Source: Patescibacteria group bacterium (lineage in GTDB: Bacteria > Patescibacteriota > Minisyncoccia > Phycocordibacterales > JBBUBG01). From it: a DNA stretch of 64,000 nucleotides. The stretch is from assembly GCA_040384765.1 (NCBI GenBank), contig JAZKIQ010000004.1:63434-127433 (forward strand). The letters run 5' to 3'. Positions 1 through 61,041 of the stretch are shown here, one piece after another. The position numbers and the translations under genes were made by a program. The stretch's first letter is position 1; each line of letters starts with the position of its first letter. A model generated the notes under the pieces. The model saw nothing but the letters and a program-made list of their open reading frames with translations, searched no databases and had not been told where the DNA came from.

Positions 1-3000
1 GGTCTTAGACTGCTCCACTTCACGAGTGCGCTCGAGCACTTTTGCCTGAAGGTTTTTGTTGAGGTCGGAAAGGGTTACCGAAAGGCGGTCGAGCTCTTCT
101 TTTTGCTCCTCACCTTTGATGATGTTCCTGATGAAGAAGATGCCGACGGTGGTGAATGCGGTAAAAATAAGCGCTTTGCTGATAAAGCCAGAGGTCAGCT
201 CGCCATGGGCAAAAATATTCCCGAAAAGGAGAAATACGATAAAAAAGATCCCAAGCTCAGCGGTGATTACTTTTAGGGCGATCACCTCCTCTCGGGCGAT
301 AGCATAGGCACTCATGCCTAGCCAGCCGATCATTGCTATTGGGCCAAGCCAGTACGTATTGGTGTATCCAGCATAGGTATAAAAAAGACTGACCATCACC
401 GGAATTGTGCCGAGGAGAGCAGTCCAAAAGACGCCTTTCCTGCGCTCTGTCGGCCCAAGAATGGTTGCTTTGTCTAGGTGCTGGTGCATATAGGCAAAGC
501 CGATCGTAAGGAGGACGAGAAAATGTATTCGCGCAAGAAGACCAAACTCTCCGTAGGTCCAGTATCGATCAAGCACGTTTGGCCCCCCAAACCCTGCACC
601 CGCAATGATGAGGTTGCCCTGATAGTAGAGATATCCAAACCCAAGCTCGAGAAGTGCGATAAAGCTCGCTATTTTTGTGCGAGGGAGGGGCCGCTCTACC
701 GCAGCAAGGGCAAAGAAGAGGAACGCCACGGCCACGCCATTGCCTACAAAGCTCGCCGTTTTTGCCCAGAAAAGGAGTGAGGCGTCGGTGCTCGAAGCGT
801 ACAGAAAGCTTGTTGCGAGTGCCCAGGCCCCAGCCATGAATACCAAAAATGAGTACCGCATAGCACCTTCGCGGGTCGAGTGTCGATAGAGATAGAATGA
901 AAAGAAAAAGAGGGTGAGGGCTGTCGCGAGGTTTATGAGTGCGTAGCTGTTGAGGTTTGCCCAGAGAGAGGTCGTGATGAGGAATGCACCCATGCCGCTC
1001 ACAAAAATATTTACAAACAAGATCAGAATAAGCACTGCAGCAAGGAGAGTGGTGACAATGAAGCGCACGGAAAGGAACTGGTAGCGCTTGATTGCATAGG
1101 AGTTAAAGCCGATCCATCCCAAAATCGCGGTGGGCGCAAACCAGTAGAGAGAGGTGTTGCCGCCGTGCTCGATTAAGGGATAGATAATCACGAGCCCGGG
1201 TAGTGCCCCTAGGAGCGACCCCCACAGAATAAATAAGCGAGCTTTCTTATTTTCACCAACAAGATATCCCAGTTTTTTCCATAGGAGGTATGCTGCAGCC
1301 ACAAAAAAACCGATGAAATGTATCTCTTCAAAAAGCCGAAGTGGGCCGTATGTCCAGGTGCGGTCGAGAACTCCTGCGCTCCCTAGGTGCGCAGATGCTA
1401 CGAGAAGGTCAGTGCCGATGAATAGATAGCCAACAATGAGCTCAAGAAAGAGGAGAGCGAGTGCTACTTTTCGCGGCATCCGGTTTCCCTCGGGGATAGA
1501 GAAGGTGTAGGCAAAAAAGGCGAGTGCAATACCACTGCCTATAAAATGGTTGAGCCGAATGATGAGGGTGAGAAAAGCATCGGTCCCGGCAGCGTAGTAG
1601 AGCCCGATACCAAATGCCCAGAGGCCCGCAACCCATACGATGCGAGCGTAGGCCCGAGAGACCGATGCTTTGCTTCCGAGGTAGATGAGTGTTCCGAAGA
1701 TCGCGAATATAAGAGCGGTTGTCCAGTTGAGCATCGTATAGCCAGTGACAGGACCAAAAAGTGAAGAGAGATCTTCTTTGGCGAATGAGCCGAGGGTGTC
1801 GCCGATGCCAAACGGAAGGAATATGTTCACAAACAGGACAATCACCATCAAGAGAAGCGCAAGCTCTGCAGCAATAAGCTTGAGGTTGAGTGCTTTGTAT
1901 TTGACGATAACGTAGGAGGTCAGGAGCACCCATGAAAGTGCAAACAGAGGCCCGAGCCAGCTAAATCTGAACAGACCAAAGAGGGGGAGTACCACCGCTA
2001 CCGTTACTCCGATGAGTGAGCCGAGGAGCGTTGCGGCAAAGATGATGAAAAGCTGGTGGCGAGTGGCGGGGTCCGCGAGGCTTCGAAACTTTTTCCAAAG
2101 CAGGGTAAGGCCTCCAATAAAAAACGGCGCGAAGTTGAGGTGAAACAAAAATCCAAGCGGGCCAAACTGCCAGCCGTTTTCAACGGTGTTACCGAGGACA
2201 ATAAAAGTGTCGCGGATTATGAGCGGGGTAAAGAGATAGAGAGGTAGAAGGATCGCTTCGAGGGACACGAGAAGGGGGAACACCCAGCGCTTCGGCTTCT
2301 CTTCGCTCGGGTAGAGCATCGCAAAGTACAGAAAGATGGTCCCCACAGCGCCGCCGACGTAATGGTTGAAACGGTTGAGAAAAAGGAGAATATCATGGTC
2401 GATAAGCATGTAGTAGAGCCCCATGCCAAACCCCCAGAGTGCAAGCATTGTCGCGAGGAGGGCGTAGGCTCTATTCGATGAGCGGCGAGAGCCGGTGGCA
2501 AGCACGATTGCAAAACTCGCGAAAAGGATGCCTGCGAGCCAGTTCACCATGCTTTCAATGCCGGGCGTGACAATGCTTGCGCGAAAGTGGGCTATAGAGG
2601 CGCCTATTCCCTCGATTGTTGGGAGACCGAGGGTTACATCACCAAGAAACGAGCCGGAGATACCTGATCCCGAAAACAGGATATTGAGGAAAAGGATCAC
2701 GATCATTGCAAACACGGCTATTTCAGCAACGACGTGTCGCACGTCGAGCGCCCGATACCGCACGATCGTGTAGTAGGTGAGTGCTACCCAGACAAGTGCC
2801 GAAAATGGGGCGTAGCGTGCAAAATGGAAATAGCCAAAAGCTGGCAGTACCATCGCAATGACTATGGCGAGGAGGGCGCCCCATACGATAGCCCAGAGCA
2901 GTACGCGAAGTACACTCTTTGTCTCAGGGGAGCTTGCGGTGCGATATTTTTTCCAGAGCAGATAGATGCCTGCTGCAAAGGGGATAAGAAAATGCGCATA

Positions 3001-3450
3001 AAAGAGCGCTCCGAGCGACCCCAAGTGCCAGCCGTACTGGAGACGGTCGACGCTTACGATAAAGAGGTCGTGGATAATCGTGTTTGTACCGAGGTAGAGA
3101 TACGCAAGCACGACCTCGGCGCCCATGAGCCAGTACAGCTGTTTTCGGGGAGGAGCTACCTCTTCGGGGAACAGCACGCCAAAATAGTAAAAGAGGGGAC
3201 CTACTGAGGCCGCAGCAAAATGGTTGAGCCTGTTAAAAAAAAGAAGGAGCTCTCCCGTGTCTCCGACAAATGCGCTGCTCGTGGCTATCCAGTAGAAGGT
3301 GCCTTGAGAAAGTGACCAGAGAGAGCAGGTGAATGCGAGGATCGAGTAAGCGCGGGTGGAAGGCTTTTTTGATCCGACATGGAGGAGCACCGCGAACAGT
3401 CCAAAAATAAGAGCAGAGAACCAGCTTATGGCCGATGTCGCATTGAGCAC
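1..3450 (-). CDS. Giant polytopic membrane protein (partial, >1150 aa; start GTG 3450 or ATG 3492, 3' end runs off window at position 1). Four tandem ~200-aa 7-TM sensor-like modules followed by a coiled-coil linker; possible sensor kinase or cyclase input domain
   Basis: Own minus-strand translation: one frame is open across all 3450 nt. It is absent from the ORF track because no stop codon lies in the window. Motifs LLWKK(Y/F)R, FxNR(L/F)NHF and Y(Y/W)..GP recur every ~200 aa. The C-terminal part reads ...GEEQKEELDRLSVTLSDLNKNLQAKVLERTREVEQSK. Confidence 0.7.
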   Translation of the reverse strand, partial: MLNATSAISWFSALIFGLFAVLLHVGSKKPSTRAYSILAFTCSLWSLSQGTFYWIATSSAFVGDTGELLLFFNRLNHFAAASVGPLFYYFGVLFPEEVAPPRKQLYWLMGAEVVLAYLYLGTNTIIHDLFIVSVDRLQYGWHLGSLGALFYAHFLIPFAAGIYLLWKKYRTASSPETKSVLRVLLWAIVWGALLAIVIAMVLPAFGYFHFARYAPFSALVWVALTYYTIVRYRALDVRHVVAEIAVFAMIVILFLNILFSGSGISGSFLGDVTLGLPTIEGIGASIAHFRASIVTPGIESMVNWLAGILFASFAIVLATGSRRSSNRAYALLATMLALWGFGMGLYYMLIDHDILLFLNRFNHYVGGAVGTIFLYFAMLYPSEEKPKRWVFPLLVSLEAILLPLYLFTPLIIRDTFIVLGNTVENGWQFGPLGFLFHLNFAPFFIGGLTLLWKKFRSLADPATRHQLFIIFAATLLGSLIGVTVAVVLPLFGLFRFSWLGPLFALSWVLLTSYVIVKYKALNLKLIAAELALLLMVIVLFVNIFLPFGIGDTLGSFAKEDLSSLFGPVTGYTMLNWTTALIFAIFGTLIYLGSKASVSRAYARIVWVAGLWAFGIGLYYAAGTDAFLTLIIRLNHFIGSGIALAFFAYTFSIPEGNRMPRKVALALLFLELIVGYLFIGTDLLVASAHLGSAGVLDRTWTYGPLRLFEEIHFIGFFVAAAYLLWKKLGYLVGENKKARLFILWGSLLGALPGLVIIYPLIEHGGNTSLYWFAPTAILGWIGFNSYAIKRYQFLSVRFIVTTLLAAVLILILFVNIFVSGMGAFLITTSLWANLNSYALINLATALTLFFFSFYLYRHSTREGAMRYSFLVFMAGAWALATSFLYASSTDASLLFWAKTASFVGNGVAVAFLFFALAAVERPLPRTKIASFIALLELGFGYLYYQGNLIIAGAGFGGPNVLDRYWTYGEFGLLARIHFLVLLTIGFAYMHQHLDKATILGPTERRKGVFWTALLGTIPVMVSLFYTYAGYTNTYWLGPIAMIGWLGMSAYAIAREEVIALKVITAELGIFFIVFLLFGNIFAHGELTSGFISKALIFTAFTTVGIFFIRNIIKGEEQKEELDRLSVTLSDLNKNLQAKVLERTREVEQSKT

Positions 3451-3478
3451 AGTGGCTTTATTATAGCGTGAAAGTGAA

Positions 3479-3520
3479 AAGAGAATCCCCATTATTCTTG
3501 CGAATAATGGGGATTCTCTT
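3479..3520 (-). terminator. Rho-independent terminator downstream of the HU gene; abuts the start of the giant membrane-protein gene
   Basis: Perfect hairpin agagaatccccattattc-ttgc-gaataatggggattctct; U-rich on the minus-strand side. Confidence 0.6.
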
Positions 3521-3541: not shown

Positions 3542-3820
3542 CTAGGACATCTTTACTGCATCCTTGAGCGCTTTTGCTGCACGAAACTTCGGTGCTTTCA
3601 TCGAAGGCACCTGCACGGTCTCGCCGGTGCGTGGATTGCGCGCCGTGCGAGCTGCTCGGGTCTTTACCGAGAAGATACCAAGACCTGCTATCGAAACCTC
3701 ATCTCCTTTCTTGAGGCCATCTACGATAGCCCAGAGCATCGTGTCTACTGCCTCTTCAGCGGCAACTTTTGTCCCGCCAATCTTCGAGTGAACCGCATCG
3801 ATAATATTTTGCTTGTTCAT
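3542..3820 (-). CDS. hup: Nucleoid-associated DNA-binding protein HU
   Basis: 92-aa ORF MNKQNIIDAV...GLGIFSVKTRAARTARNPRTGETVQVPS, the typical HU/IHF fold signature. Confidence 0.9.
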   Translation of the reverse strand: MNKQNIIDAVHSKIGGTKVAAEEAVDTMLWAIVDGLKKGDEVSIAGLGIFSVKTRAARTARNPRTGETVQVPSMKAPKFRAAKALKDAVKMS

Positions 3821-3875
3821 ATGGTTGTTTGCCTCCTTGCATAGCGAGGAGGTTATTACGACCTTTAGCTAGGTA

Positions 3876-4053
3876 GTGTTCGCAATCTCGCGTCCTGTCA
3901 AAACGCCGGAGTTCCGAGCGAAAAACGAGATGGAGTTCGAGCCGTATAGTATACGGCTCGGGCGAAGCGCAGTTTTGCAGCCGGAACTCCGGCGTTTTGG
4001 CGGACGAGCGATACTTTCAGCCCATCCCTTCGCGGCGAGATTGTGAACACTGC
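3876..4053. other. Nested perfect inverted repeats (candidate structured RNA or element scar)
   Basis: Outer 18-bp arms 3876-3893/4036-4053 (one G-U). Inner 18-bp arms caaaacgccggagttccg 3899-3916 and cggaactccggcgttttg 3981-3998. Internal hairpin gagccgtatagtatacggctc. Confidence 0.35.
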
Positions 4054-4218
4054 CAAGGCTAGTATACCGCAGCCCAAAATCAAGGGCAATCGAGAAATGG
4101 CTTAGTGAAGCCATGCAACTCGGGTAAGAGTTCAGAGTTTAGAGATCAGAGATTAGTCACTCAACAATGGCGAGCAAGAGTTTTGCTGACTGAGCTCTGA
4201 ACTCTGTAAACTGAACTC

Positions 4219-6226: not shown

Positions 6227-6281
6227 ATAAGAGATCCGACGCCGTTCAGTGTGAACACTGTCGGGAAAAGGAAGGTGTGTT

Positions 6282-6860
6282 ATGGAAACTAACACGGAGC
6301 TTTCGCTCGATGTTGGCCAAGCAAATGAGCTCAAGCTCGCGTTCCGCCGAACTGGCTGGACGAATGCAGAGATCAAGATGCTGTGTGAGGGGAGCAAGCT
6401 TCGCAAAGTGCTTCTCACGCTCCGCGGCTGGGCAGAAATCAGCGTGCCGAAAGTGGATCTTTCCGCCAGCCCGTCGCTCTACAGCTCGCTTGCGGTTGTG
6501 CAGGAGCATGAGGTTGGGCCCCAGCACTGGGAATGGGATCCGGGTAACACCGAGCTGTATGTCCACCAGTACCAGAGGAAAGGGTGGGCCCTCAACACGG
6601 TTGAGCTTCGAAAGGAGCTCGCAGGCCGGAAGACGCTCAACGCGTGCCTCATCGACTTCCTCCTCGCGCATCCGCACCTGATTCCTCCTGAGTGGGAATC
6701 GTGGCATGTGCTCTTCTTGGGGACGACCTATCGCGACGTGATGTTCGATGTGTCGCGAATCAGGTATCTCTACCGGAAGGGTACAGACTGGAAAGGTGGG
6801 GACGTTAAGGTGGGTGATCATCTGAACGATAGGTACCGCGCGCTCCTGGTTAGGGAGTAG
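6282..6860 (+). CDS. Hypothetical protein (192 aa), single-gene unit with its own consensus promoter, strong SD and terminator
   Basis: METNTELSLDVGQANELKL...; no recognisable domain. An antisense 265-aa ORF overlaps it but is Arg-rich junk. Confidence 0.6.
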   Translation: METNTELSLDVGQANELKLAFRRTGWTNAEIKMLCEGSKLRKVLLTLRGWAEISVPKVDLSASPSLYSSLAVVQEHEVGPQHWEWDPGNTELYVHQYQRKGWALNTVELRKELAGRKTLNACLIDFLLAHPHLIPPEWESWHVLFLGTTYRDVMFDVSRIRYLYRKGTDWKGGDVKVGDHLNDRYRALLVRE

Positions 6861-6875
6861 CCGTCGGTAGACTGT

Positions 6876-6920
6876 TCTTGCCCCGTTCTTTCGCTTAGGC
6901 GAAACGAGCGGGGCTTTTTT
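6876..6920 (+). terminator. Rho-independent terminator
   Basis: gccccgttctttcgcttaggcgaaacgagcggggc followed by ttttttg. Confidence 0.7.
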
Positions 6921-6969
6921 GTATAAAGCTTGGCTCGAAGGTATTTCTTTTGAAAAAGCTTGCGCAGTC

Positions 6970-6997
6970 GCCCGCAGCAGGGTGCGGGCCTTTTGTG
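6970..6997 (+). terminator. Second plus-strand terminator-like hairpin
   Basis: gcccgcagcagggtgcgggcc followed by ttttgtg. Confidence 0.45.
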
Positions 6998-7043
6998 AGA
7001 GTTGCTCAGCAGAGCAAAGGCCCGATCGGGCGACGAGCGGCAA

Positions 7044-8880: not shown

Positions 8881-9144
8881 CTAGTTCTTCGTACTGCTTG
8901 CTGTCTCTTCGAGCGCGTTTAGCTTGGCCTCAATATCAGACAGATCGAGCTCTCCGTAGTCGCTTTTGAGGGTTCCTACATCATCTGTGCCTGTGGCATG
9001 AGGGCGGTCGCTCTCGGCTGAGATAAGAGGGGACGCCGCTTCGCGCTTTTTGATGCTTGCATACGCACCGATTCCAAGGAGCACAATAAGTGCTCCAACG
9101 AGGAAAAGCGGTCGAGATTGAATGAACGATGAGCGAGGACGCAT
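8881..9144 (-). CDS. Small membrane-anchored hypothetical protein (87 aa)
   Basis: N-terminal TM RPLFLVGALIVLLGIGAYA, acidic tail. Confidence 0.45.
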   Translation of the reverse strand: MRPRSSFIQSRPLFLVGALIVLLGIGAYASIKKREAASPLISAESDRPHATGTDDVGTLKSDYGELDLSDIEAKLNALEETASSTKN

Positions 9145-9156
9145 GCTGCGATGCGA

Positions 9157-9699
9157 TTAGCGGCTCTCTTCGGAAGAGGTGTTGGGGTTCCTTTCGAGAT
9201 CGGCTGCCAGCTCAAGTGCGTCGATGGTTGCGCCGATCTTTTTATGAGTGAGAAGTACTGCATCCTGAGCATCTTTGATCGAGAGGCGAGCTTCTGTGAG
9301 CGCTTCTTTGAGGTTTCCAAAACCAAGCACTTCAGTGACATTCTCTTCGATGCTCTCAATTGCTGTTTTTGCACCTTCGAGTGCAGCCTTTGCTTCGATG
9401 AGTGACTGCTTTGCGTCCTCAACATTGCGGCGCTCCTCTTCAAATTTGCGTACGCGAGAATCGATGCGAACAAGAAGGTCCTCCTGCTTCTGGGATAGTA
9501 CCGAAAGGCGATCTGCGGCTTCTCGGGCATACTGGACTGTTTTTTCTTTTTGAAACTCCGAAAGCCTGCTCTTTTGGAGCACTTTTGGGGTTGTAGATGT
9601 AGCTTTCTCTACTGGCGTGTGTACTGCGTAGACTGCTCCGCTTGGGACCGCCGAGAGGAGAGAGAGAAGGGCGGCTGCGGCAAAAAACGTTGATTTCAT
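9157..9699 (-). CDS. Secreted coiled-coil hypothetical protein (180 aa)
   Basis: Signal peptide MKSTFFAAAALLSLLSAVPSGAVYA, then a heptad-rich sequence. Confidence 0.55.
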   Translation of the reverse strand: MKSTFFAAAALLSLLSAVPSGAVYAVHTPVEKATSTTPKVLQKSRLSEFQKEKTVQYAREAADRLSVLSQKQEDLLVRIDSRVRKFEEERRNVEDAKQSLIEAKAALEGAKTAIESIEENVTEVLGFGNLKEALTEARLSIKDAQDAVLLTHKKIGATIDALELAADLERNPNTSSEESR

Positions 9700-11068: not shown

Positions 11069-12064
11069 TTAGTACCCCCAGTCAAATGAGTCCCAGTCGG
11101 AGCTGACGTACTCGCTTCCGTACGAAGGAGGGAGGTTCCAGCTGTCGTCCGAGGACCAGATATCCCCAGAAATGAGGCTTCCCGTGAGGGGAAGATCGTT
11201 TGCGGAGTTTGAGTACAGGTAGTCGTAGCGGGCAGAGGAGATTGCGTTGAGTGTTTCTGGGTAGTACCCGTGGTCGTTGTCTGACATGTAGCCAAAGATA
11301 TCTTCATCATCAGAGAAGAGGGTGCTTGGCGTGCTCGCTGGTACGTAGCCACTCGAGTATGAAGTAGGGGAAGCGGAGTAAAACGGAGTCGAGGCATCAT
11401 ACGTGCGACCGTAGTTTTCGAGCTCTGCTACATAGCCTGAAGTAAGCGGTGCGCCTGGGTAGTACTCGCGTGCCGGGGCAAGGCGTGATGGCGAGATATA
11501 TGAAGAGCCGTTTACACAGTAGCCACAGCTGTTGCCAAGGTTGCCGAGCGATACGGAAGCGCTCCAGACTGTTGGGTATGGGCCCGAAAGGGGAACGATA
11601 TAGTAGTCAGGGGTGTAGGTGTTGTAGGAGGTAAAGCCAGAGCGCGTCGCAAAGGCAGACTGATTGTATGAGGGTGCGCCAAAAAGAGATGCCGACCCTG
11701 GTGCAGGAGGCGGATTTGAGCCAGGTGCTGGTGGCGGGTTTGATCCTGGTGCGAATGAAGCAATAGGAAGGATGTTTGCCGTCCGGGGGAGAGGCGCCAC
11801 TACGTTTGTATTTATATGTGTAGTACCACCACCAATAAAGGCTGGTCCGTTATTAATAGGAGCAATGGGTACTGGTGTAGCCACGGGAGCGGCAGCAAAA
11901 GGGAGCGGCTTTGTGGCAAGCGCGGTGGTGTTTGTAGACGATGGGTAGTAGGGGTTGCCGGTATAAAAGGCGGCATCGGTGACTACCTGGGCATGAGCAA
12001 AGACAGGGGAGGCAAGAAGTGCACCCCCGACAACCGCTTTTGCAATATATTTGGTGAGTTCCAT
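11069..12064 (-). CDS. Secreted low-complexity P/S/Y/G-rich protein with tandem PGSNPPPA repeats
   Basis: Signal peptide MELTKYIAKAVVGGALLASPVFAHAQ; repeat PGSNPPPAPGSNPPPAPGS. Confidence 0.6.
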   Translation of the reverse strand: MELTKYIAKAVVGGALLASPVFAHAQVVTDAAFYTGNPYYPSSTNTTALATKPLPFAAAPVATPVPIAPINNGPAFIGGGTTHINTNVVAPLPRTANILPIASFAPGSNPPPAPGSNPPPAPGSASLFGAPSYNQSAFATRSGFTSYNTYTPDYYIVPLSGPYPTVWSASVSLGNLGNSCGYCVNGSSYISPSRLAPAREYYPGAPLTSGYVAELENYGRTYDASTPFYSASPTSYSSGYVPASTPSTLFSDDEDIFGYMSDNDHGYYPETLNAISSARYDYLYSNSANDLPLTGSLISGDIWSSDDSWNLPPSYGSEYVSSDWDSFDWGY

Positions 12065-12238: not shown

Positions 12239-12311
12239 AGAAGGGGAGGCGGACACTCATGTGGATAAGCACACACGAAGTGAAGAGATGGTGCTGTATG
12301 ATAAAGGCATT

Positions 12312-13415
12312 ATGAGACAATCGCACACTCGTCAGTTTGTTCTTGCTGTTCTGCTTGCTGCGGTTGCGTTCTTTTTGCTCGCGCGGGGGGAGAGCCCTGC
12401 TTCAGATTCAAATATAGGTATCGTGCCCGAGATCGGGGTGCGGCTTGTGCATGCTGGCCCCGACCTTACCGGTGCGCTTTCTGGTGCTGCCTGGTCGAGC
12501 ACTATCGGCTGGGTAAGCTTCAACAGTGCCAACTCGTGGACGGGAAGTAGTGTGCCATACGTTGTGCGCTCCGATGCCGATGGGTACCTCTCGGGGCATG
12601 CGTGGAATCCAAATATTGGCTGGCTCTCATTCAACCGCGCAGATACAGGTACTCCTCCGCAGGCGGATATCAGTACGGGAGGGGTGGGTGCGATTGCACG
12701 GCTTTCAGGCAACAGACTCATAGGGTGGGCTCGCTTTCTTTCTGCGTGCACCAAAAATGCGCAAGGGAGGTGCACGGGGACAAACCCCGAAGCAGGTGGC
12801 TGGGATGGCTGGGTCTCACTGAGCGATTTTAGCGGCGCTGCAAGCTATGGCGTTGGCTTCGACGGCACGATTCTCGGTGGTGGTGCCTATGCCACAAGCG
12901 TTGCTTGGGGGAGTACCAACGTTGGCTGGCTCTCATTTAGCAAGGCTGCCGTTGGCTACGATGCTGTGAGCTTGGTGCCTGCAAACCAGGCTCCGCCCGA
13001 GGGCCTCGCGGCTCCAACAGGTCTCGTGCTTGCACCACCACGCCTCTCATTTCTCACCGATCGCCCGGAGACGAGCACCTTCGGTACACTCCACGTAGAT
13101 ATGAATCCACCGGTAACGATGACCCTTTCATATGGCGGTGTGCAGGCTCCTGCTGGGGTGACAGTGACTCAGACGATTACGCCGATCTTTAGCCAAAACC
13201 CCGTTACTGCATCCTCCAACGTCCGCATACGCTTCCGGGTGTGTGCCGCACTTCCGGCAGGGTGCAATGCAGCGAAAGGCCATGCCCTTCCCAAGAGTGG
13301 GCAGTATCTCGTGACGATCAATGGCACCTATAATGATGGTACCGGCCCTGTGACAGTACCATTTGTGGTGCCGGTCCAGGTGAATTCGCTCGTGAACAAG
13401 GTGAAAGAAAAATAG
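12312..13415 (+). CDS. Membrane-anchored surface protein with repeated IGW(V/L)SF motifs (likely start at Met18 of the track ORF)
   Basis: MRQSHTRQFVLAVLLAAVAFFLLA (TM); repeats IGWVSFNSANSW, IGWLSFNRADTG, GWVSLSDF, VGWLSFSKAAVG. Confidence 0.6.
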   Translation: MRQSHTRQFVLAVLLAAVAFFLLARGESPASDSNIGIVPEIGVRLVHAGPDLTGALSGAAWSSTIGWVSFNSANSWTGSSVPYVVRSDADGYLSGHAWNPNIGWLSFNRADTGTPPQADISTGGVGAIARLSGNRLIGWARFLSACTKNAQGRCTGTNPEAGGWDGWVSLSDFSGAASYGVGFDGTILGGGAYATSVAWGSTNVGWLSFSKAAVGYDAVSLVPANQAPPEGLAAPTGLVLAPPRLSFLTDRPETSTFGTLHVDMNPPVTMTLSYGGVQAPAGVTVTQTITPIFSQNPVTASSNVRIRFRVCAALPAGCNAAKGHALPKSGQYLVTINGTYNDGTGPVTVPFVVPVQVNSLVNKVKEK

Positions 13416-13502: not shown

Positions 13503-14612
13503 ATGAATATCAGTCAAGAATCACAAGGAGTATCTCTCGGAGCAAAGCTGCTCGGTGTGCTGATGGTGCTCGTTGTCGGTTTTGGTATCGCGCGCGCCGA
13601 CTGGACAGCACCTGGCTCGACTCCACCGGGATGCACCGCTGGCACGGGGCCATGTGAGGCACCGATCAACGTAAGTAGTACCAACCAAACAAAAAGTGGC
13701 GGCCTTACGGTGAACGGAAATTTCATTCCACCGCGCCTTGCGACAGCCTCTCTCCCGACGTGCAATACTGCAAACAGGGGCTCAACTGTTTTTGATACGA
13801 CGGCAGGTAAGCTGAAAAATTGTGACGGTACTGTGTGGAAAGTGCTTGCCTCAGACGACCAGATTATCCCTCCCGTCCCATTTCCTTCTGGTGCAGTTAT
13901 GTCGTTTGATATAGCAAATACGGGATCACCGAATGATTGCCCTGCGGGTTGGACGGAGTTTACTGCCGCTGAAGGCCGATCTGTGGTGGGGCTTCAGTAC
14001 GCTGGAACGCTCCGTGGTACAGCAGGCACACCTCTGACAGATAGACAGGATAGACCTACTGGCTCGCATACCCACTACCAAGCTGTTCAGGATCACCCTA
14101 TTTATGGGTATGGGCATACGCATCCTGTTGCTGCAAGCTTTAGCGGTAGCGGTACCGGTAGCACTGAATTGCCTAGACATCGGCATTGGCTGGGTACTAA
14201 TCAATACGGTGGTGACGTCGGCGCCACAAGCCAATTTCATTTTGGAGGGAATGCTAATCAGCAGGGGTATACCTATGTAGGGTTCCAGGGGAGCGGTACG
14301 AATCTCGCCCCCTGGAGCGGCTACCAGGTTGGGTACGAGGGTGGCGTCAACGATTACTACTACGGCCAAAACCCATACGTAACCATAACGGTACCGATAT
14401 CAGGTTCAGTCTCGGGAACCGCAAGTAAAGCGCATGAAAATATTCAGGTGTACAATCCTATCCAGGGTGGCTGGACCTATACATACGATGGTGCTCAGTA
14501 CGCCCATCTCTACGAAGGGGGTTACGACACCAATGCTCCTACTCAGGCGGGTGCAAATATTGCGGGTACGAATGCTCCCTACATCCAGTTGTTGATGTGT
14601 AAAAAGAGTTAA
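13503..14612 (+). CDS. Membrane-anchored G/Y-rich surface protein, possible adhesin
   Basis: N-terminal TM LLGVLMVLVVGFGIA; CPAGWTEF and NCDGTVWKVL motifs reminiscent of tail-collar/adhesin folds (weak). Confidence 0.5.
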   Translation: MNISQESQGVSLGAKLLGVLMVLVVGFGIARADWTAPGSTPPGCTAGTGPCEAPINVSSTNQTKSGGLTVNGNFIPPRLATASLPTCNTANRGSTVFDTTAGKLKNCDGTVWKVLASDDQIIPPVPFPSGAVMSFDIANTGSPNDCPAGWTEFTAAEGRSVVGLQYAGTLRGTAGTPLTDRQDRPTGSHTHYQAVQDHPIYGYGHTHPVAASFSGSGTGSTELPRHRHWLGTNQYGGDVGATSQFHFGGNANQQGYTYVGFQGSGTNLAPWSGYQVGYEGGVNDYYYGQNPYVTITVPISGSVSGTASKAHENIQVYNPIQGGWTYTYDGAQYAHLYEGGYDTNAPTQAGANIAGTNAPYIQLLMCKKS

Positions 14613-60831: not shown

Positions 60832-61041
60832 CGGGACGTGGTGTAACGGTAACATTCACGAGATGGGGTCGAATCTTTTGTCGGGCTATAGTGTAACGGT
60901 AACATTCACGATTCGGGTTCGTGAGACTCTGGGTTCAAATCCCAGTAGCCCGACAAAAGATTTGACGGGAATGCCCCAAGCGCATTCCCCGGATTTTCAG
61001 CAGAAAATGTGAGACTCCGGGTTCAAATCCCGGCGTCCCGA
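60832..61041 (+). tRNA. Split or nested tRNA-Pro(UGG)-like gene: 5' half 60832-60868, 3' half 61007-61041, interrupted by 138 nt that contain the tRNA-Pro(CGG) gene
   Basis: Acceptor CGGGACG pairs perfectly with CGTCCCG; T arm CCGGG-TTCAAAT-CCCGG (compensatory relative to the inner tRNA); anticodon loop GATGGGG. Confidence 0.4.
60882..60953 (+). tRNA. tRNA-Pro (anticodon CGG)
   Basis: Hand-folded: acceptor CGGGCTA/TAGCCCG; D stem GTGT/ACAT; anticodon stem CACGA/TCGTG; loop TTCGGGT; T arm CTGGG-TTCAAAT-CCCAG. Confidence 0.8.

Follow-up and report, generated by a model that had tools for sequence, protein, structure and literature searches.

The left end of the 64-kb window (by which we mean the whole stretch of DNA analysed) raises the question of what is encoded by a long minus-strand frame in which one membrane unit seems to be repeated four times, and of what a protein built in this way might do. 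From position 3492 down to position 1 the minus strand reads through 1164 codons with no stop, in agreement with the preliminary description, which had given more than 1150 codons open to the window edge and had also noticed that the gene is absent from the automatic ORF track; the lister skips it because the frame runs past the end of the window before any stop is reached. The window translation is 100% identical to residues 1–1164 of MES2953312.1 (referred to below as P0001), a protein of 1531 amino acids from a Patescibacteria MAG that carries the generic name 'ATP-binding protein' in its database record, and positions 1–3492 of the minus strand are thus the 5′ part (1164 of 1531 codons) of its gene. 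A signalling domain had been expected downstream and an extension past the window edge had been proposed as the way to look for it. The exact-match protein supplies that extension, and the catalytic domain is present: a PAS domain begins at residue 1165 and is followed by HisKA (1293–1360) and HATPase_c (1407–1516), the last two with Pfam scores above the cut-offs. The kinase boxes can all be read (H, SIAAHQLRSPL; N, NLLSNAIWYT; G1, DTGKGL; F, FTKFFR; G2, GSGLGLFIV). On the strength of these two domains and the boxes the encoded protein classes, by sequence, as a class I histidine kinase and, since the full-length match runs from the repeats into PAS, HisKA and HATPase_c, we read it as a sensor histidine kinase with four seven-transmembrane (7TM) inputs.

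The start of the gene can be placed with some care. The nearest in-frame stop 5′ of the candidate starts lies at 3555 (minus strand), leaving ATG 3492, which is the start used in the NCBI record, and GTG 3450. The ATG sits inside the 3′ arm of a terminator-like hairpin that belongs to the upstream HU gene (3479–3520, minus strand; a T-rich tail comes after the 19-bp stem). Starting at the GTG leaves a spacer of 91 nt after HU, compared with 88–113 nt at the syntenic loci, and the N-termini of homologues (MLNSTTLISW, MLSATAILSW) align with VLNATSAISW at this codon. GTG 3450 is therefore the start better supported by homologues.

That the protein contains four repeats, as originally described, was confirmed in two ways. 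The Pfam family HisKA_7TM (PF16927) matches four stretches of the window protein (62.2 bits; gathering score 28.6), the best of which spans profile positions 3–222 of 224, and a profile built from the repeats themselves finds each of them with E of about 1e-110. The latter places module 1 (type A) at residues 17–273 (positions 2674–3444), module 2 (type B) at 311–559 (1816–2562), module 3 (type C, also modelled) at 583–831 (1000–1746) and module 4 (type D) at 848–1095 (208–951), all on the minus strand and each consisting of a 7TM bundle with a connector helix, TM8. The repeat length of about 200 aa given at first was too short: the core measures about 250 aa, and successive repeats start 294, 272 and 265 aa apart. 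Three motifs had been ascribed to every repeat (RAY, NR(L/F)NHF and LLWKK); they hold for repeats 1–3 but not for repeat 4, which reads MRY, AKTASF and YMHQH at these places, and LLWKK does not lie near the end of the repeat but in mid-unit, in the cytoplasmic TM5–TM6 loop. Module 4, which lacks the NRxNH and LLWKK motifs, is the most divergent of the four. Profile score, a predicted seven-helix bundle and a position N-terminal to the kinase transmitter together identify the modules as HisKA_7TM. The Pfam scan at E ≤ 1 gave no other family, an NCBIfam scan of the window protein gave no match, and the repeat profile found nothing among PDB sequences.

As the source is a metagenome-assembled genome, and as in related genomes a one-module paralogue adjoins the gene, it is conceivable that one-module kinase genes have been misassembled or frame-fused, or that a repeat has been collapsed or expanded during assembly. 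However, the pairwise identity between repeats is 23–40% at the protein level and at the DNA level just 20–30-nt imperfect matches are left, with no long repeats to mislead an assembler; the duplication is thus an old, protein-level one. Whole-gene fusion would be expected to leave a TM9 helix or a kinase remnant between the modules, and the internal modules have neither. Moreover, a single ORF with four modules occurs at the same syntenic position in independent assemblies (an NCBI MAG, an ENA metagenome and NCBI GCA_034680565.1): the orthologues P0002 and P0003 have four modules each, and the gene order NusA–trigger factor–ClpP–RNase Y–HU–kinase is common to the window and to both of their loci. 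Assembly artefact and gene fusion are ruled out on these grounds for all practical purposes.

The seven helices per repeat (about 28 in all) initially counted proved to be an underestimate, as there are eight per unit and one more after the last unit, making 33, with the N-terminus predicted outside and the C-terminus inside. The unit of eight is seen in the models, and hydropathy and the positive-inside count agree with it: lysine plus arginine number 52 in the 205 residues of the predicted inside loops and 9 in the 232 of the outside loops, a distribution that supports the N-out/C-in topology. In the AlphaFold2 model of module 2 (pLDDT 92.3) there are seven bundle helices plus TM8, and the helices of the bundle are arranged as in a GPCR; each module is accordingly a predicted GPCR-like seven-helix bundle. 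The outer loops are short (2–39 residues), a beta-hairpin being predicted in the TM4–TM5 loop of each module. TM8, the extra helix that follows each bundle and ends in a conserved LFxNIF, returns the chain to the outside, and the next odd-numbered bundle can therefore insert N-out again. TM9 (residues 1101–1121; 130–192, minus strand; defined by hydropathy and model) follows the last module only and brings the chain back to the cytoplasm. It is succeeded by the charged helical linker that had been described after the last repeat, here located at residues 1122–1164 (1–129, minus strand; RNIIKGEEQKEELDRLSVTLSDLNKNLQAKVLERTREVEQSKT), a cytoplasmic signalling helix or coiled coil that leads into PAS-HisKA-HATPase_c past the window edge. 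In the two-module AlphaFold2 model TM9 and linker form one continuous helix (H521–581), and nowhere in the protein is conservation higher than in the linker, which is 62–76% identical to those of orthologues.

The same arrangement recurs in relatives. These were collected by an exhaustive representative search, a 14-repeat profile search having given one weak match, and the module counts rest on the best 150 of 5152 family matches. Of 83 related kinases, one module is found in 61, two in 15, three in three and four in four, so the description of a four-fold 7TM duplication as unusual stands with the qualification that the layout, though rare, is recurrent: it is the rare end of a one-two-three-four series. 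Among the best matches, 31 of the 33 inter-module connectors consist of exactly one TM segment, and exactly two TM segments follow TM7 of the last module in 84 of 91 family members. This amounts to a single building rule: a lone connector helix separates the bundles, and two helices follow the last one. The single-module kinases, such as P0012 and P0013, share with P0001 the sensor module, the TM8–TM9 hairpin and the signalling helix leading into (PAS-)HisKA-HATPase_c, and their homology is clear (E down to 1e-72 per single module); whereas they have one bundle and nine helices, P0001 has four bundles and 33 helices, the first eight helices being repeated three extra times. Haloarchaeal kinases such as VNG_2180C (PMC5847659) are of this single-module HisKA_7TM kind. 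Relatives with two or three modules (P0004, P0005, P0006–P0009 and P0010, P0005 being from Candidatus Vogelbacteria) follow the building rule of P0001 with fewer modules; P0007 has counterparts of modules 3 and 4 of P0001, and P0004 of modules 2 and 3. P0115 and P0151 arrived at four modules by independent expansion, again with 7TM+1 internally and 7TM+2 at the end and, unlike in P0001, modules 2–4 of P0151 are mutual best matches.

More distant likenesses are of fold or layout. Structural alignment of the module with GPCRs (class C GABA-B and class A) gives 6–14% identity and Foldseek E-values no better than 2e-3, TM3, TM6 and TM7 of the modules carry no DRY, CWxP or NPxxY motif, and the Pfam scan of the window protein found no GPCR family at E ≤ 1. 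The output of a GPCR is a G protein and its multi-bundle assemblies are made of separate chains, whereas P0001 has its output, a histidine kinase, covalently attached and its bundles in one chain. In 7TMR-DISM (PF07695) and other bacterial 7TM receptor families, a seven-helix module serves as the input of the kinase or cyclase to which it is fused; P0001 has no Pfam match to these models at E ≤ 1, its outer loops are short and it has no DISMED-type extracellular domain. Histidine kinases with multiple inputs usually stack soluble PAS or GAF domains in the cytoplasm, whereas the repeated unit of P0001 is a whole polytopic bundle, for which a parity-restoring helix is required.

Are the four modules equivalent? 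Their best matches indicate that they are not recent copies of one another. Module 1 is closest to module 1 of P0002 (53% identity) and of P0003 (50%), module 3 to module 4 of P0002 and module 1 of P0007 (about 40%), and module 4 to module 2 of P0007 (40%) and module 4 of P0003 (34%); that is, the best match of each module is its positional equivalent in another protein and not a sister module of its own chain. Recent tandem expansion is thereby ruled out, the modules being closer to these counterparts than to their neighbours. The series reads A-B-C-D in P0001, A-B-B′-C in P0002 and A-B-B′-D in P0003, a turnover between orthologues which shows that the array is not rigidly fixed.

These data bear on the proposal that only the kinase-proximal module signals, modules 1–3 being membrane ballast that senses nothing and serves structurally, for example in anchoring, oligomerisation or localisation to a membrane domain or host-cell contact site, or else enlarges the footprint so that the protein reports a bulk membrane property, such as tension, thickness or curvature, in place of ligands. 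The variable module content of orthologues is consistent with this, as is the fact that only module 4 has a covalent link to TM9 and the signalling helix. In the two-module model the bundles are confident but the pTM is 0.62 and the TM8 connectors have pLDDT values of 46–60, so that no interface can be claimed between adjacent bundles, which again suits passive modules. The same may be said of the type-specific residues, 17 of which fall in the outer half of the bundle and 11 in the inner half (Fisher P = 0.43); with no outer-half enrichment these give no positive sign of differing ligand pockets. However, passive modules should have drifted or grown alike, whereas among the modules conservation between orthologues is highest for 1 and 2, those farthest from the kinase (50–62% identity, at least matching the 47–55% of the catalytic core), every type is maintained as its own lineage across proteins, and bundle residues conserved family-wide (W353, G444, W512, W521, Y527) are kept across the modules. 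The ballast proposal is on balance unlikely. A role in transport or enzymatic activity, with the kinase reading turnover as in transporter–kinase co-sensing, seems very improbable, although one of the top 50 Foldseek hits is a 7TM enzyme, the alkaline ceramidase ACER3, and the function assigned to HisKA_7TM is a putative one.

We therefore favour the reading of the locus as the input region of a class I sensor kinase, comprising four HisKA_7TM modules that would feed a multi-input relay, and give it, taken as a whole, a probability of roughly 0.8. As no known ligand of any HisKA_7TM member was found in the literature searched, the sensor role of the modules is a putative one, drawn from the family annotation and analogy of fold. 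In such a relay the protein would work, like other histidine kinases, as a DHp-mediated dimer; types A, B, C and D would each have been kept as a separate lineage and would each sense a cue of their own, within the membrane or at its outer face; the three distal modules may influence the proximal one by way of lateral helix packing and the TM8 connectors; and the summed state would be relayed by TM9 and the signalling helix and so set the balance of kinase and phosphatase activity. The target can be suggested from the orthologous loci L001 and L002, as the downstream context of the window copy lies beyond the window edge. At both loci a one-module paralogous kinase lies downstream, its start overlapping the stop of the giant gene, and at L001 this is followed by a REC-REC protein, two genes downstream; a scan of the other 60 kb of the window found no response regulator, and the 64 kb as a whole encode no receiver domain. 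The REC-REC protein may then be a response regulator shared by P0001 and the one-module kinase directly downstream. A stronger version, in which the modules are four functionally distinct GPCR-like receptors with their own cues and the eight bundles of the dimer form one allosteric machine that computes a combined signal for one kinase, is tentative and less likely than not.

The novelty of the finding has limits, since the 7TM module is an already catalogued Pfam family and the protein had been deposited before; the four-module chain is a rare, recurrent architectural variant of a known sensor family. The literature searched contained no account of 7TM kinase modules in tandem; one may exist elsewhere. 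What P0001 adds is an entire polytopic receptor bundle repeated four times to give a 33-helix sensor, and a connector rule that shows how tandem copies of a seven-helix module can arise with no flip in orientation and that predicts the topology of every family member. Communication between neighbouring 7TM bundles is otherwise studied in non-covalent GPCR dimers; given the GPCR-like predicted fold, orthologues with one to four modules offer a natural series for following it. Among the few signalling systems of a Patescibacteria (CPR) genome a four-module kinase is unusually elaborate. If the modules do form an array of distinct receptors, the 7+1 unit would be a general evolutionary device for duplicating odd-numbered membrane bundles, and P0001, in an ultra-small symbiotic bacterium, would parallel GPCR heteromers in covalent form.

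The minus strand of the window is free of stop codons from position 3492 to position 1 (1164 codons by translation), and the frame was missing from the ORF list because the lister leaves out ORFs that run off the end of the source. The G+C content of this region (52%) is similar to that of the remainder of the window. A search of 5.8 billion proteins gave a full-length match of 1531 aa (P0001, deposited as MES2953312.1, 'MAG: ATP-binding protein [Patescibacteria group bacterium]', from a 135-kb contig) with 100% identity across the whole window-encoded query. The preliminary description had predicted a signalling domain after the coiled coil, and the last 367 residues of P0001, which lie past the window edge, bear this out: the protein continues into a PAS domain (from residue 1165), HisKA (1293–1360) and HATPase_c (1407–1516), with the H, N, G1, F and G2 boxes all readable. 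The giant kinase is a real gene whose function had been guessed correctly.

Going upstream, the first in-frame stop lies at 3555; two start codons come into question, ATG 3492 (the choice of the NCBI record) and GTG 3450. GTG 3450 is the better supported: homologues start MLN or MLS in alignment with it, it gives a spacer of 91 nt versus 88–113 nt in the orthologous loci, and ATG 3492 falls within the 3′ arm of a terminator-like hairpin with a 19-bp stem (3479–3520, minus strand) that follows the HU gene. A perfect TATAAT lies 9 nt upstream of GTG 3450, and with this spacing the transcript may be leaderless or nearly so. The motif is absent from the promoter scan results because no −35 element matches. 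The intergenic spacer between the RNase Y and HU genes is 398 nt in the window versus 94–115 nt in the syntenic loci and contains three nested inverted repeats (3862–4064, minus strand; fold −99.8 kcal/mol, z = −8.85 versus shuffles). Rfam gave no match for the structure, and the window holds no second copy of its 18-nt arm; either a structured RNA or the insertion of a small palindromic element could account for it.

In the window-encoded part HisKA_7TM (PF16927) is the sole matching Pfam family (four stretches; 62.2 bits, cut-off 28.6), and NCBIfam gave no match. The repeat profile places modules 1 to 4, counted from the N-terminus, at residues 17–273, 311–559, 583–831 and 848–1095. The four repeats are 23–40% identical as proteins and share at the DNA level only imperfect matches of 20–30 nt at motif positions; the duplication is therefore old, and assembly artefact was ruled out as its origin. 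The motifs RAY, NR(L/F)NHF and LLWKK, which had been ascribed to every repeat, hold for repeats 1–3 but are lost from repeat 4, and LLWKK lies in the cytoplasmic loop between TM5 and TM6, not near the repeat end. Similarly, each repeat had been described as having seven helices but contains eight hydrophobic ones, the seven of the Pfam domain and a conserved eighth (TM8, the connector) whose end reads LFxNIF. As a ninth helix (TM9, residues 1101–1121) follows repeat 4 only, the total is 33 TM helices. With the N-terminus placed outside, there are 52 K+R in 205 residues of predicted cytoplasmic loops versus 9 in 232 residues of outer loops, a strong positive-inside signal for this predicted orientation.

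The same building plan extends across the family. When 1.84 billion representatives were searched exhaustively by HMMER for the repeat profile (E ≤ 1e-3), 5152 proteins were returned. The 153 sequences fetched include 83 with kinase domains, of which 61 have one module, 15 two, three have three and four have four. One-module members consist of the 7TM bundle, TM8 and TM9 and then the signalling helix. Exactly one TM segment is present in 31 of 33 inter-module connectors and exactly two follow the last bundle in 84 of 91 proteins, so that the duplicated unit is one of 7+1 helices, and since the extra helix returns the chain to the outside every bundle inserts N-out. Both connector exceptions are in one related protein, P0003: one is a weak TM call in a 49-residue linker and the other an insert between modules 3 and 4 (116 residues in the connector count, 92 when taken as residues 801–892; about 12400–12680 of its locus, L001), in which two extra hydrophobic helices can be seen by eye flanking an R/K-rich loop (RTSRTTPPLPAK). 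The number of extra helices being even, membrane parity is kept, and the insert may be what is left of a fifth module.

The AlphaFold2 model of module 2 (46 aligned modules; pLDDT 92.3, pTM 0.88) shows eight helices, with TM4 and TM5 joined through a beta-hairpin. When modules 3 and 4 were modelled with the tail, the bundles were confident and a single unbroken helix of 61 residues ran from TM9 into the cytoplasmic linker; the TM8 connectors had pLDDT values of 46–60 (pTM 0.62), and the model leaves bundle-to-bundle placement unfixed. In Foldseek the predicted module gave weak matches of a GPCR-like kind (best E 1.8e-3, TM-score 0.5–0.59), with one 7TM ceramidase in the top 50. GPCR sequence motifs are absent from the modules, and the predicted likeness is a resemblance at the level of the fold. 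This is not new in itself, because GPCR-like folds were already taken to include 7TM histidine kinases of archaea and bacteria in a 2026 survey (PMC13581589); four such bundles on a single chain do appear to be new.

Four modules are also found in P0002 and P0003 (42% and 43% overall identity to the giant kinase), which are orthologues from independent assemblies and share with the window the gene order NusA, trigger factor, ClpP, RNase Y, HU, kinase. Modules 1 and 2 match their counterparts in the orthologues (50–53% and 55–62%, respectively). The two-module protein P0007 has equivalents of both later modules, its module 1 matching module 3 and its module 2 matching module 4; in the orthologues, module 3 corresponds to module 4 of P0002, and module 4 to that of P0003. 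The third module of P0002 and P0003 is an additional copy of the module-2 type. Thus at least four module types have been kept as separate lineages, with whole units gained and lost. Four modules were reached independently in the related proteins P0151/P0115. The literature searched contained no description of a four-module 7TM kinase; the family is known and this architecture is rare but recurrent within it.

In the two syntenic loci (L001 and L002) a paralogous kinase follows the four-module gene (L001 14683–17565, a stretch that also takes in the receiver gene after it; L002 14485–16380, where the kinase is cut by the contig end). In L001 the stop of the giant gene overlaps by 4 nt the start of P0017, a 686-aa protein in which a single module is combined with PAS, HisKA and HATPase_c and which is 36–42% identical to the last module and transmitter of the giant kinases, and P0017 is followed by a 273-aa protein of two receiver domains without an output domain. 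This arrangement indicates that the two kinases probably feed one output-less double receiver. For the copy described here the corresponding downstream positions lie beyond the window edge, and neither a receiver nor another kinase or module is encoded in the other 60 kb of the window. The surrounding housekeeping genes (RNase Y, ClpP, trigger factor, NusA) are interspersed with ORFs of 184–384 aa without a Pfam match at E ≤ 0.001 (6246–7043, 8976–9530 and 11069–12064 on the minus strand, 12261–13415 and 13503–14612 on the plus strand), and L001 and L002 have Pfam-less ORFs at similar positions. Large PF26696 (PTL_trimer) proteins, one with a faint C1q match, are encoded upstream of NusA in L001 (1–2770) and L002 (305–2083). 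A tRNA-Pro (CGG; 60882–60954, plus strand) is the sole tRNA and sole gathering-level Rfam match in the 64 kb.

The best-conserved stretch of the giant kinase is TM9 with the linker (62–76%), and the catalytic core is conserved at 47–55%. In the main rival explanation module 4 is the only one to signal, and the rest serve a structural role or make a sensor of membrane properties larger. Modules 1 and 2 are as highly conserved as the core, which makes this reading less likely. Residues specific to a module type showed no significant bias towards the outer half of the bundle (17 outer, 11 inner; Fisher p = 0.43). No ligand of any HisKA_7TM family member is reported in the literature searched, where the domain is rarely mentioned. 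Domain order, topology, parity rule, predicted fold and conservation are established for the giant kinase, and the mechanism built on them is inferred. The giant kinase would dimerise through its signalling helix and DHp domain, and each bundle would sense a cue within the membrane or at its outer face. Lateral packing and TM8 would let the distal bundles influence the proximal one, and the summed bundle state would pass through TM9 and the signalling helix to the kinase, which, along with the one-module paralogue, would act on the double receiver protein.
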